A stretch of 64,000 bases of DNA from Escherichia coli (lineage in GTDB: Bacteria; Pseudomonadota; Gammaproteobacteria; Enterobacterales; Enterobacteriaceae): the NCBI RefSeq assembly GCF_024502345.1, contig NZ_JALDNN010000002.1. One strand, written 5' to 3'. Positions 17,530-35,079 of the stretch are shown piece after piece (the stretch's first letter is position 1; each line of letters starts with the position of its first letter). The translations under genes were made by a program, and so were the position numbers. The notes beneath the pieces are model-generated. The model was not told the origin of the DNA, ran no database searches, and saw only the letters and a list, made by a program, of their open reading frames with translations.

Positions 17530-18446
17530 TGAATCGCCACGGATAATCTAGACACTTCCGAGCCGTTGATAATACTGGTTTTCATATTCTGTCGGTGACA
17601 TCTGTTCGCTAGAACCATGCCGACGCTTACTGTTATAAAACATTTCGATGTAATCAAAAATATCACTGCGGGCTTCTTCCCGCGTTCCGTAGATCTTTTT
17701 CTTTATCCGTTCACGTTTCAACAACTGGAAAAAACTTTCTGCAACCGCATTATCATGGCAGTTACCGCGACGGCTCATGCTACCCTCCAGGCCGTGTGAT
17801 TTCAGGAACGACTGCCACTCATGGCTTGTGTACTGACTGCCCTGATCCGAATGAACCAGCACCTGTTTTTCGGGATTACGCCGCCATACAGCCATCAGCA
17901 GTGCGTTCAGGACAATGTCCTTTGTCATCCGGGATTGCATGGACCAGCCGATAATTTTGCGTGAGAACAGATCAACAACAACGGCAAGATACAGCCAGCC
18001 TTCGTGGGTCCTGATGTAGGTTATGTCCGTTACCCAACGCTCATCAGGAGCATCCGGATTGAACTGTCGCTGGAGCCTGTTGGGTGACACGATACTGGCC
18101 TCGCCTTTACGTGCCCGCGGGCTTCGGTATCCGACCTGAGCCTTTATTCCGACACGTTTCATCAGTCTCCAGACTCTGTTTACTCCGCACTGTTGCCCGC
18201 TGTCACGCAGATCCAGATGGATTTTGCGATAACCATAGACGCATCCCGATTCCAGCCAGAACTGTTTAATCTGTCCTGTCAGTCTCAGGTCTGCCTGATG
18301 GCGTTGTGAATGCGGCTGCTGAAGCCAGGCGTAAAAACCACTGGGATGAACATCCAGCACCCGACAGAGCAGGCGAACAGGCCAGCAACAGGAGTTGTCA
18401 CGGATAAAGGCGTACCTCAGTCGGACAGCTTTGCGAAGTACGCCGC
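17530..18446 (-). mobile_element. IS3-family element fragment X (right IR plus orfB), truncated by IS30
   Basis: Terminal tgaatcgccacgg... IR at 17530; orfB with DDE motifs; orfA missing. Confidence 0.8.
17548..18360 (-). CDS. IS3-family transposase OrfB (DDE integrase domain), partial
   Basis: 270 aa; ...WVTDITYIRTHEGWLYLAVVVDLFSRKIIGW...HSDQGSQYTS... Confidence 0.85.
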   Translation of the reverse strand: MLDVHPSGFYAWLQQPHSQRHQADLRLTGQIKQFWLESGCVYGYRKIHLDLRDSGQQCGVNRVWRLMKRVGIKAQVGYRSPRARKGEASIVSPNRLQRQFNPDAPDERWVTDITYIRTHEGWLYLAVVVDLFSRKIIGWSMQSRMTKDIVLNALLMAVWRRNPEKQVLVHSDQGSQYTSHEWQSFLKSHGLEGSMSRRGNCHDNAVAESFFQLLKRERIKKKIYGTREEARSDIFDYIEMFYNSKRRHGSSEQMSPTEYENQYYQRLGSV

Positions 18447-19667
18447 TGTAGATTCAATTGGTCAACGCAACAGTTATGTGAAAACATGGGGTTGCGGAGG
18501 TTTTTTGAATGAGACGAACATTTACAGCAGAGGAAAAAGCCTCTGTTTTTGAACTATGGAAGAACGGAACAGGCTTCAGTGAAATAGCGAATATCCTGGG
18601 TTCAAAACCCGGAACGATCTTCACTATGTTAAGGGATACTGGCGGCATAAAACCCCATGAGCGTAAGCGGGCTGTAGCTCACCTGACACTGTCTGAGCGC
18701 GAGGAGATACGAGCTGGTTTGTCAGCCAAAATGAGCATTCGTGCGATAGCTACTGCGCTGAATCGCAGTCCTTCGACGATCTCACGTGAAGTTCAGCGTA
18801 ATCGGGGCAGACGCTATTACAAAGCTGTTGATGCTAATAACCGAGCCAACAGAATGGCGAAAAGGCCAAAACCGTGCTTACTGGATCAAAATTTACCATT
18901 GCGAAAGCTTGTTCTGGAAAAGCTGGAGATGAAATGGTCTCCAGAGCAAATATCAGGATGGTTAAGGCGAACAAAACCACGTCAAAAAACGCTGCGAATA
19001 TCACCTGAGACAATTTATAAAACGCTGTACTTTCGTAGCCGTGAAGCGCTACACCACCTGAATATACAGCATCTGCGACGGTCGCATAGCCTTCGCCATG
19101 GCAGGCGTCATACCCGCAAAGGCGAAAGAGGTACGATTAACATAGTGAACGGAACACCAATTCACGAACGTTCCCGAAATATCGATAACAGACGCTCTCT
19201 GGGGCATTGGGAGGGCGATTTAGTCTCAGGTACAAAAAACTCTCATATAGCCACACTTGTAGACCGAAAATCACGTTATACGATCATCCTTAGACTCAGG
19301 GGCAAAGATTCTGTCTCAGTAAATCAGGCTCTTACCGACAAATTCCTGAGTTTACCGTCAGAACTCAGAAAATCACTGACATGGGACAGAGGAATGGAAC
19401 TGGCCAGACATCTAGAATTTACTGTCAGCACCGGCGTTAAAGTTTACTTCTGCGATCCTCAGAGTCCTTGGCAGCGGGGAACAAATGAGAACACAAATGG
19501 GCTAATTCGGCAGTACTTTCCTAAAAAGACATGTCTTGCCCAATATACTCAACATGAACTAGATCTGGTTGCTGCTCAGCTAAACAACAGACCGAGAAAG
19601 ACACTGAAGTTCAAAACACCGAAAGAGATAATTGAAAGGGGTGTTGCATTGACAGATTGAATCTACA
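18447..19667 (+). mobile_element. IS30 copy 1 (1221 bp)
   Basis: IRs tgtagattcaattggtcaacgcaacag / revcomp; flanking dinucleotides differ (gc vs ac), so no TSD. Confidence 0.95.
18509..19660 (+). CDS. IS30 transposase
   Basis: 383 aa MRRTFTAEEKASVFELWKNGTGFSEIANILG... matches IS30 transposase from memory. Confidence 0.95.
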   Translation: MRRTFTAEEKASVFELWKNGTGFSEIANILGSKPGTIFTMLRDTGGIKPHERKRAVAHLTLSEREEIRAGLSAKMSIRAIATALNRSPSTISREVQRNRGRRYYKAVDANNRANRMAKRPKPCLLDQNLPLRKLVLEKLEMKWSPEQISGWLRRTKPRQKTLRISPETIYKTLYFRSREALHHLNIQHLRRSHSLRHGRRHTRKGERGTINIVNGTPIHERSRNIDNRRSLGHWEGDLVSGTKNSHIATLVDRKSRYTIILRLRGKDSVSVNQALTDKFLSLPSELRKSLTWDRGMELARHLEFTVSTGVKVYFCDPQSPWQRGTNENTNGLIRQYFPKKTCLAQYTQHELDLVAAQLNNRPRKTLKFKTPKEIIERGVALTD

Positions 19668-20583
19668 ACCGCGCTCTTGATGTCAGACTCCCTGAACAGT
19701 TCTCGATAATCGGGAAACTCAGAGCGCATTATCCTGTGGTCACACTCTGCCATGTGTTCGGGGTTCATCGCAGCAGCTACAGATACTGGAAAAACCGTCC
19801 TGAAAAACCAGACGGCAGACGGGCTGTATTACGCAGTCAGGTACTTGAGCTACATGGCATCAGCCACGGTTCGGCCGGAGCAAGAAGCATCGCCACAATG
19901 GCAACCCGGAGAGGCTACCAGATGGGACGCTGGCTTGCTGGCAGGCTCATGAAAGAGCTGGGGCTGGTCAGCTGTCAGCAGCCGACTCACCGGTATAAAC
20001 GTGGTGGTCATGAACATGTTGCTATCCCTAACTACCTTGAACGGCAGTTCGCCGTGACCGAGCCAAATCAGGTGTGGTGCGGTGATGTGACCTATATCTG
20101 GACGGGTAAGCGCTGGGCGTACCTCGCCGTTGTTCTCGACCTGTTCGCAAGAAAACCAGTGGGCTGGGCCATGTCGTTCTCGCCGGACAGCAGGCTCACC
20201 ATGAAAGCGCTGGAAATGGCATGGGAAACCCGTGGTAAGCCCGGCGGGGTGATGTTCCACAGCGATCAGGGCAGTCATTATACGAGCAGGCAGTTCCGGC
20301 AGTTATTGTGGCGATACCAGATCAGGCAGAGTATGAGCCGGCGCGGAAATTGCTGGGATAACAGCCCAATGGAACGCTTCTTCAGAAGTCTGAAGAACGA
20401 ATGGATACCGGTGGTGGGTTACGTAAGCTTCAGCGAGGCAGCTCACGCCATAACGGATTATATCGTTGGATATTACAGCGCACTAAGACCGCACGAATAT
20501 AACGGTGGGTTACCCCCAAACGAATCGGAAAATCGATACTGGAAAAACTCTAACTCGGTGGCCAGTTTTTGTTGACCACTTCA
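19668..20583 (+). mobile_element. IS3-family element fragment Y (orfB plus right IR), 5'-truncated by IS30
   Basis: orfB-only remnant ending in ...gttgaccacttca; different sequence from fragment X. Confidence 0.75.
19736..20575 (+). CDS. IS3-family transposase OrfB (DDE), lacks orfA
   Basis: 279 aa; ...[32 protein letters not shown]...[10 protein letters not shown]... Confidence 0.85.
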
Positions 20584-33948: not shown

Positions 33949-34768
33949 GGCACTGTTGCAAATAGTCGGTGGTGATAAACTTATCATCCCCTTTTGCTGA
34001 TGGAGCTGCACATGAACCCATTCAAAGGCCGGCATTTTCAGCGTGACATCATTCTGTGGGCCGTACGCTGGTACTGTAAATACGGCATCAGTTACCGTGA
34101 GCTGCAGGAGATGCTGGCTGAACGCGGAGTGAATGTCGATCACTCCACGATTTACCGCTGGGTTCAGCGTTATGCGCCTGAAATGGAAAAACGGCTGCGC
34201 TGGTACTGGCGTAACCCTTCCGATCTTTGCCCGTGGCACATGGATGAAACCTACGTGAAGGTCAATGGCCGCTGGGCGTATCTGTACCGGGCCGTCGACA
34301 GCCGGGGCCGCACTGTCGATTTTTATCTCTCCTCCCGTCGTAACAGCAAAGCTGCATACCGGTTTCTGGGTAAAATCCTCAACAACGTGAAGAAGTGGCA
34401 GATCCCGCGATTCATCAACACGGATAAAGCGCCCGCCTATGGTCGCGCGCTTGCTCTGCTCAAACGCGAAGGCCGGTGCCCGTCTGACGTTGAACACCGA
34501 CAGATTAAGTACCGGAACAACGTGATTGAATGCGATCATGGCAAACTGAAACGGATAATCGGCGCCACGCTGGGATTTAAATCCATGAAGACGGCTTACG
34601 CCACCATCAAAGGTATTGAGGTGATGCGTGCACTACGCAAAGGCCAGGCCTCAGCATTTTATTATGGTGATCCCCTGGGCGAAATGCGCCTGGTAAGCAG
34701 AGTTTTTGAAATGTAAGGCCTTTGAATAAGACAAAAGGCTGCCTCATCGCTAACTTTGCAACAGTGCC
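33949..34768 (+). mobile_element. IS26 copy 2 (820 bp), no TSD
   Basis: 14-bp IRs; flanks tcaattag vs gctttttt. Confidence 0.97.
34012..34716 (+). CDS. tnpA: IS26 transposase Tnp26
   Basis: Same sequence as copy 1 in the track. Confidence 0.97.
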   Translation: MNPFKGRHFQRDIILWAVRWYCKYGISYRELQEMLAERGVNVDHSTIYRWVQRYAPEMEKRLRWYWRNPSDLCPWHMDETYVKVNGRWAYLYRAVDSRGRTVDFYLSSRRNSKAAYRFLGKILNNVKKWQIPRFINTDKAPAYGRALALLKREGRCPSDVEHRQIKYRNNVIECDHGKLKRIIGATLGFKSMKTAYATIKGIEVMRALRKGQASAFYYGDPLGEMRLVSRVFEM

Positions 34769-35022
34769 GCTTTTTTTAATATGTCCCGTTCGTCGGTAAC
34801 CCGCTTCAGCTCTTTCTGGAGACGGCGGATCTCGGCCTGAGCATCTGACTGTTCTTTATTAATGGAAGGATCCGGATCGTACTTCTTTATCCAGGCGTAA
34901 AGGCTGTGGGTGGTGATATCGAGACGTGTTGCAACGCTGGCAACAGAATAACCGCGATCAACAACCTGTTTGACTGCTTCAGTTTTAAACTCTTCGGGAT
35001 GACGCTTACCGCTCATGGGCAC
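34769..35022 (-). pseudogene. IS3-family OrfA, 3'-truncated
   Basis: MPMSGKRHPEEFKTEAVKQVVDRGYSVASVATRLDITTHSLYAWIKKYDPD... ends inside the IS26 IR. Confidence 0.8.
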
Positions 35023-35079
35023 CTCTCTTTAAGCCATCTTAAATGACTCGGAGGTGTCTGTTAAACCCGTGGCGATTCA
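34769..35079 (-). mobile_element. IS3-family fragment (left IR plus 5' part of orfA), truncated by IS26
   Basis: IR revcomp tgaatcgccacgggtttaacagacacctccgag resembles the IR of fragment X at 17530; OrfA-like N-terminus. Confidence 0.75.

Follow-up and report, generated by a model that had tools for sequence, protein, structure and literature searches.

Two complementary fragments of an IS3-family element on an Escherichia coli contig are probably remnants of different copies

We analyzed two fragments of one insertion sequence (IS) type that lie on the same strand of an Escherichia coli contig (NZ_JALDNN010000002.1). The whole stretch of DNA under study, referred to here as the window, comprises 64,000 nucleotides, and positions are those of the window unless another replicon is named. 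Both fragments belong to a 1229-bp IS3-family element that we call ISx as a working name. Fragment X (17530-18446, minus strand) contains ISx positions 313-1229, including orfB with its rve DDE domain and the right inverted repeat (IRR). Fragment Y (34769-35079, minus strand) contains ISx positions 1-311, including the left inverted repeat (IRL) and orfA up to the frameshift heptamer. The fragments are 16,322 bp apart, and a preliminary description of the window implied that they are the halves of a single copy. The junctions, the sequence variants and the distribution of the surrounding modules suggest a different origin. X and Y are probably remnants of two different ISx copies that were brought in by separate module acquisitions.

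Variant types and flanks of the two ISx fragments

We aligned the fragments to full-length ISx references from pECL_A (L001), an Enterobacter mori plasmid (L002) and a Leclercia plasmid (L003). ISx has the gene layout of the IS3 family, an upstream orfA with an HTH_Tnp_1 domain and a downstream orfB with an rve (DDE) core. Its ends, TGAATCGCCACGG...CCGTGGCGATTCA, are TG...CA inverted repeats of the IS3 type. Intact copies are flanked by 3-bp duplications, CTC in pECL_A and CAC in the Enterobacter plasmid OW968419 (L006). At the end of orfA, intact ISx carries ATATTAAAAAAAGCC (positions ~298-312), with a predicted -1 frameshift heptamer of the A AAA AAG type. The Prokaryotic Genome Annotation Pipeline (PGAP) labels the element only as 'IS3 family transposase'. 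ISx may resemble ISEhe3, a likeness for which the papers on ISEhe3 and ISKpn52:IS30 gave no sequence-level confirmation. The 45 Pantoea plasmid matches are compatible with it.

Fragment X aligned to ISx 313-1229 without gaps and was identical to pECL_A at 917 of 917 positions. It is of the pECL_A/OW968419 variant type (100% identity) and differs from the E. mori and Leclercia copies at 17-18 sites. Its 270-amino acid open reading frame matches PF00665 (rve, E = 1e-33), HTH_21 and positions 110-369 of the NCBIfam IS3 transposase model NF033516 (338 bits, cut-off 160). The reading frame in fragment Y comprises 82 orfA codons and ends at the A AAA AAA G slippery run. It contains HTH_Tnp_1 (PF01527, E = 4e-17) and also matches NF033516 at positions 1-80. 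The preliminary description had placed orfB and a terminal repeat in X, and a repeat and the 5' part of orfA in Y, both in minus orientation. These assignments and their coordinates were borne out by the reference alignments, as was the fusion of each fragment to a different IS, X to IS30 and Y to IS26.

Over 33 bp, the inverted repeat of X agrees with that of Y at only 79%, a difference that could mean that the fragments come from separate IS species resembling each other only in family-level repeats. The same difference between IRL and IRR is present within every intact copy, however, and X (98-100%) and Y (97-99%) both align over their full length with one set of 1229-bp references. Because both are at least 97% identical to these references, X and Y represent one element type, as had been proposed, and we regard an origin in different species as extremely improbable.

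Two properties make the fragments resemble one split copy. Their ISx content is complementary to within 1 bp, with only position 312 missing, a fit that the preliminary description had overlooked, and their order and minus orientation are those expected of a split element. Repeated use of an IS30 hot spot explains the complementary breakpoints equally well. The variant types of X and Y are discordant: X has 0 mismatches to pECL_A in 917 positions, and Y has 8 in 311 (Fisher p = 1.6e-5). Y also differs from OW968419 at 7 of 311 sites, though X is identical to both plasmids. The closest relatives of Y are found elsewhere, with 2 mismatches to the E. mori copy, 3 to the Leclercia copy and none to ISx copies linked to sucrose-utilization (scr) genes in the IncY plasmid pCE1537-E (L008) and two further loci (L009 and L010). 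We refer to this type as the scr-linked variant. When the two fragments were joined into a reconstructed Y+C+X element, its best match among 706 full-length database copies was 99.4%, and such a chimera was absent from that set.

The outer flanks of X and Y are unrelated. X interrupts the IncFIA replication gene repE with its IRR end, leaving the first 44 bp of the gene (17486-17529, plus strand; 14 codons plus 2 nt). The sequence leading into this junction (16802-17529) is 98.6% identical to pNT1F31-tetX4 (L014 21981-22708), in which repE is annotated from 22665. We found no remainder of repE within the window and no other plasmid record with the repE/X junction, which is known only from this window. 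Fragment Y instead borders the region upstream of scrK. No 3-bp duplication is present at the outer flanks (TAG beside one fragment versus AGA beside the other). Both inner junctions pre-exist elsewhere, in separate modules.

These data bear on the possibility that X and Y are halves of a single ISx::IS30 element upstream of scrK (X-IS30-Y-scr) that were later separated. IS30 and IS26 events would then have put 15.1 kb (19668-34768) between IS30 and Y, with loss of ISx positions 312-314. A structure of this kind has existed. E. coli WEM25 p2 (L011) and Providencia pPS1 (L012) carry IS26 (opposite orientation)-IS30[688-1221]-ISx[314..1]-scrK, with an IS30 part that is 100% identical to the IS30 of the window, and therefore a scr-linked ISx copy was also struck by IS30 at 313/314. 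The discordant variants, the unrelated outer flanks and the prior existence of both inner junctions in separate modules nevertheless argue against the single split copy. In addition, pCE1537-E shares the IS26/Y/scr block at 99.99% identity without X-IS30 nearby, and X is bordered by repE rather than by DNA of the scr locus. X plus IS30 is 100% identical to an Enterobacter plasmid whose own Y part is the other variant. The arrangement X-IS30-ISx[1-314] was found in 61 records, none of which is linked to scr. We consider a single split copy unlikely.

Several points weigh against separate origins. The order and orientation of X-IS30-...-Y-scr are exactly those of ISx::IS30 upstream of scrK, and the WEM25 p2 and pPS1 loci, in which the IS30 3' half is identical, prove that such an arrangement existed. 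The orfB half of a scr-linked ISx copy is kept in no record, and a mosaic parent is possible. That IS26 lies just 3 bp away from the IS30 site has to be put down to coincidence or to an undefined local preference. Finally, a search of the 64-kb window did not reveal the reciprocal product (IS911 5' part-IS30-ISx 1-314). We also searched for the whole 19-kb arrangement in complete E. coli genomes; no record covered more than 49% of it, and therefore the source replicon or a close relative is absent from the collections searched. With these points taken into account, we favor two different ISx copies as the source of X and Y.

IS30 copy 1 and its two targets

The element adjoining X is IS30 copy 1 (18447-19667, plus strand), which is complete at 1221 bp and encodes a transposase matching NF033563 (276 bits). 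Its IRL contacts X at 18446/18447. On its other side lies an IS911-like 3' remnant (19668-20583, plus strand; 916 bp) with orfB and an IS911-type IRR. The left flank of IS30 copy 1 is GC, which corresponds to ISx 313-314, and on the right it is bordered by the AC of the IS911 target. Since these flanks differ, copy 1 lacks a target-site duplication, in agreement with the preliminary description, which had also placed it between two different orfB-only remnants in opposite orientation. These are the 3' remnants of ISx (minus) and of the IS911-like element (plus).

Each side of copy 1 matches a simple insertion known from other replicons. The X/IS30 junction is present in 267 plasmid records. 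X and IS30 of the window are identical to OW968419 at 2138 of 2138 positions, and in OW968419 and CP093155 (L007) ISx[314..1] comes directly after X-IS30, so that IS30 there is a simple insertion that duplicated GC. The IS30/IS911 junction is present in 104 plasmid records and in E. coli K-12, where the annotated structure IS911A(1-335)-IS30A-IS911A-1 has an AC duplication. The remnant in the window starts at the same nucleotide as IS911A-1 does beside IS30A. K-12 IS911A::IS30A shares the IS30/ACCGCGCTC junction with the window, and window 19667/19668 repeats its IS30/ACCGCGCTCTTG junction nucleotide for nucleotide. Because of these structures, we conclude that IS30 copy 1 combines the left half of one documented insertion with the right half of another. 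Two IncFIA/FIC plasmids (CP057164.1 and CP043759.1) carry the X-IS30-IS911 hybrid as well. Rearrangement rather than simple insertion, as previously proposed for this region, best accounts for the flanks of copy 1; the implied splitting of one element in this molecule through an inversion or deletion by IS30/IS26 is not supported.

The window contains a second IS30 (copy 2, 23378-24598, minus strand) that is 100% identical to copy 1, inverted relative to it and 3.7 kb away. An inversion between the two copies could have produced the hybrid flanks and the missing duplication of copy 1. Copy 2, however, has a perfect CT duplication, and its flanks are collinear with the intact hsdR gene on the chromosome of strain PO06101 (L019), whose uninterrupted site (L019 6793-6794) is CT. 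They are also collinear with plasmid CP061756 (L018), which has the same copy 2 insertion. Undoing an inversion would yield the flanks GC/AG and GT/CT, which restores no duplication and breaks the collinearity. Because copy 2 simply inserted into hsdR and duplicated the 2 bp CT, we dismiss an inversion between the IS30 copies as very improbable.

We compared the sequences that IS30 entered. The target in ISx reads ATATTAAAAAAAGCC[GC]GGCGTACTT and the target in IS911 reads ATATTAAAAAAGGCT[AC]CGCGCTCTT. The GC of ISx and the AC of IS911 are homologous in position, each lying 5-6 nt 3' of the A6G -1 frameshift heptamer. Our comparison copy of IS911::IS30 is at L017 2040-3264. Complete ISx::IS30 is found in 61 plasmid records from many genera (96.7-99.8% identity), and in pNT1F31-tetX4 (L014 3917-5139) IS30 has entered this ISx dinucleotide the other way round and is flanked by GC at either end. 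A near-palindromic AAG...CTT pattern is common to all three IS30 targets of the window (18445-18446, 19668-19669 and 23376-23377/24599-24600). IS30 is known to prefer nearly palindromic hot spots, which it cuts with a 2-bp stagger (PMC9333248). It inserts in both orientations and gives rise to deletions, inversions and cointegrates (PMC9333248; Olasz, Kiss, Szabo and colleagues). Judging from these alignments, the near-coincident breakpoints at ISx 311 and 313 are best read as the imprint of an IS30 hot spot 3' of the A6G heptamer.

The breakpoint at 311 was made by IS26, whose contact with ISx at 34769 is only 3 bp from the IS30 site at 313/314. Under uniform landing, the chance of IS26 falling so close to the IS30 site is ~0.6%. 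The nearness of IS26 may be a coincidence or reflect a local structural preference of the A-tract/GC boundary, and the 3-bp distance hints that an A-tract/GC-rich boundary is intrinsically attractive to transposases. The IS26 events themselves are independent of one another, because the differently oriented IS26 of WEM25 p2 and pPS1 cuts IS30 at 688.

We tentatively propose that the segment just 3' of the A6G heptamer in IS3-family elements is a general, orientation-independent IS30 hot spot, having been struck in several ISx variants and in IS911, and that insertion there would systematically disable OrfAB production by the resident element, although we hold this to be somewhat less likely than not. 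If it is true, IS30 would seed portable homology that fuses unrelated IS remnants. A literature search on IS30 targeting of the IS3-family frameshift window, which did not extend to the 1998 target-specificity paper, yielded nothing beyond the K-12 IS911::IS30 map.

An ISx target was also seen in more than one configuration. The flank AATTGTAA[C/T]ACAAAA, located beside a small hypothetical gene near rclA, adjoins the ISx IRL in pNT1F31-tetX4 (L014 5370/5371) and the IRR end in pRHB34-C18_2 (L020 8283/8284). The presence of this flank at both ISx ends implies that the target was re-used in both orientations or that the element was inverted.

The sucrose module and the interval between the fragments

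A Tn2555-like sucrose module has fragment Y as its interior end on the left. The fragment meets an IS26 (33949-34768, plus strand) at 34768/34769, where the IS26 terminus reads GGCACTGTTGCAAA. The length of this element (820 bp), its GGCACTGTTGCAAA termini and its IS6-family transposase all fit IS26. Its flanks are hybrid (ATCAATTA on the left and GCTTTTTT on the right), and a check for an 8-bp duplication around it found none, as expected after an IS26-mediated deletion or fusion. Downstream of Y lie the sucrose-utilization genes scrK-scrY-scrA-scrB-scrR (35080-42287, plus strand), followed by IS1 copies.

The junction between the ISx IRL and AGAGAAAGAACATT is conserved across all scr-linked loci examined. 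The IS26/Y junction occurs in at least 19 plasmids; all records with it run on into scrK-scrY-scrA-scrB-scrR, and the far side of IS26 varies. Window positions 32422-42888 match pCE1537-E (L008 5774-16240) at 99.99%, with 1 mismatch in 10,467 bp. Because this 10.5-kb block is shared, the IS26/Y junction was inherited en bloc rather than formed in this plasmid. In pP10164-3 (L013), a complete ISx relative that has diverged to 89% occupies the same site upstream of scrK, and the association of ISx with scrK is therefore old. Apart from the copies ending at 314, this relative provides the only ISx sequence past position 311 that we found beside scrK in a plasmid, and it is uninformative on the orfB variant of scr-linked copies.

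The scr operon itself is a mosaic between plasmids. Window 35080-40481 is only 88.7% identical overall to WEM25 p2 and pPS1 (L011/L012 5315-10714), and Y plus ~400 bp of flank is 99.4% identical to the same loci. L009 and L010 are other patchworks (92-97%). This pattern suggests that scr alleles of different species have undergone homologous recombination with one another. The two IS1 copies beyond the operon (42288-43055 and 43059-43826) are 99.9% identical and lie head to tail ~3 bp apart as a tandem dimer.

The interval between X and Y reads as a chain of modules, each with a counterpart in other replicons. The IS911-like remnant is followed by a chromosome-type segment of a restriction-modification island (20584-23377, plus strand) with a truncated DUF262 gene, a GmrSD gene and the 5' end of hsdR, which is 99.9% identical to the PO06101 chromosome and to CP061756. 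Together with 24599-28408, this segment makes up a type I restriction-modification island (DUF262, GmrSD, hsdR and M48 peptidase). IS30 copy 2 splits hsdR (23081-27396), which encodes the type I restriction subunit. The island is otherwise found in E. coli chromosomes near yjcB, pdeC and soxS, and the plasmid version is without hsdM and hsdS. The segment from 24599 to 32421 comprises the remainder of hsdR, a gene for an M48/SprT peptidase, IS5 (28450-29646), an ompC-like gene for a porin (29840-30952, minus strand) and a further IS3-family element, whose last bases at 32421 read ...AAGATCA. The ATCC 98082 plasmid (L004) shares 99.98% identity with window 23883-32421. At 32421/32422 the end of the IS3-family element cuts an ISKpn26-like copy. 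The last segment (32422-33948), which is the left part of the pCE1537-E block, contains the 3' fragment of that copy (32422-33033) and a truncated hypothetical gene.

The structure of the junctions, the variant types and the spread of each module are observed, and from them we propose the following history, in which the order and enzymology of the recombination events are inferred. An ISx copy with its IRR in repE would have been struck by IS30 at the hot spot (target GC, 313-314), giving X-IS30. An IS911::IS30 with an AC target would have resided in the DUF262 gene. Recombination between the two IS30 copies, either homologous (RecA-dependent) or mediated by the IS30 transposase, could then have produced a single hybrid IS30, flanked by X on the left and by the IS911 3' part on the right. 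In its simplest form this event would have fused two replicons or deleted the DNA between direct repeats, and it would have removed ISx positions 1-314 and the remaining part of repE. Fragment Y would descend from an old ISx insertion upstream of scrK to which, in one lineage, IS26 came at 311/312. The resulting IS26-delta-ISx-scrKYABR module would have been inherited en bloc by this plasmid, joined through IS5-type and IS3-type elements and IS26.

Other repeats and RNA features lie outside the region of the fragments. A G+C-rich array of a 37-bp unit (13682-14180; 13.5 copies, 93% matches) has a longer counterpart in pNT1F31-tetX4 (L014 10874-12224). A 43-bp unit is repeated 10.7 times at 55637-56096 beside sopA/sopB-type partition genes, and by position and period this array looks like a sopC-like centromere. 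Rfam group II intron domains were found at 10650-10875 and 63117-63203. The latter site falls within a stretch (59935-63718) that pCE1537-E also has and that carries an ltrA reverse transcriptase/maturase gene. The ALIL pseudoknot is a structure that stimulates frameshifting in some IS3-family elements, and a match to it (Rfam, 59124-59240, 93 bits) marks a further IS3-family element in the window.

Comparison with known systems

Complementary IS fragments in the same orientation can mimic a split element and invite a false plasmid history, a matter mainly of relevance to annotation. Comparing each junction separately resolved the region into ISx::IS30, IS911::IS30, a Tn2555-like scr block and an IS30-bearing restriction-modification island, assembled at shared IS copies. 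That IS30 repeatedly entered two IS3-family elements at their frameshift window makes a neat, minor case of hot-spot targeting and can be used as a module marker. Our understanding of how these elements work is unchanged.

The IS30 sites in the window resemble published cases of IS30 hot-spot (HS) targeting, and all three targets conform to that pattern. The window differs in having no junction between inverted repeats and no (IS30)2 dimer. A hybrid IS30 copy made by the transposase is indistinguishable by sequence from one made by RecA. The closest parallel is IS911A::IS30A in the CP4-6 prophage of K-12 (insN/insI1/IS911A-1), in which IS911 is interrupted by IS30A (PMC9333248) just 3' of the A6G heptamer with a 2-bp duplication. 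The window, in contrast, holds only the right half of that structure, and the left IS30 flank is ISx, struck at the homologous position.

Tn2555 is a composite transposon built on IS26 and bearing scrKYABR (Doroshenko and Livshits 2004, as described in PMC5034289). The window is similar in that IS26 precedes scrKYABR, and at all scr-linked loci examined the Y remnant separates IS26 from scrK. It differs in that the IS26 that follows on the right (52420-53239) has the inverted orientation and is located 10 kb past scrR, with IS1 and IS5-type elements between. Two directly oriented IS26 copies do not bracket scrKYABR, and the module is therefore a Tn2555-like remnant rather than the canonical transposon. 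The mismatched 8-bp flanks of the IS26 beside Y, with one side variable across plasmids, are like those left by IS26 replicative transposition and adjacent deletion (He et al. 2015, PMC4471558). The event beside Y is nothing unusual and predates this plasmid. The region as a whole is an ordinary IS-driven mosaic of enterobacterial plasmids, in which all element types and reactions are already known.

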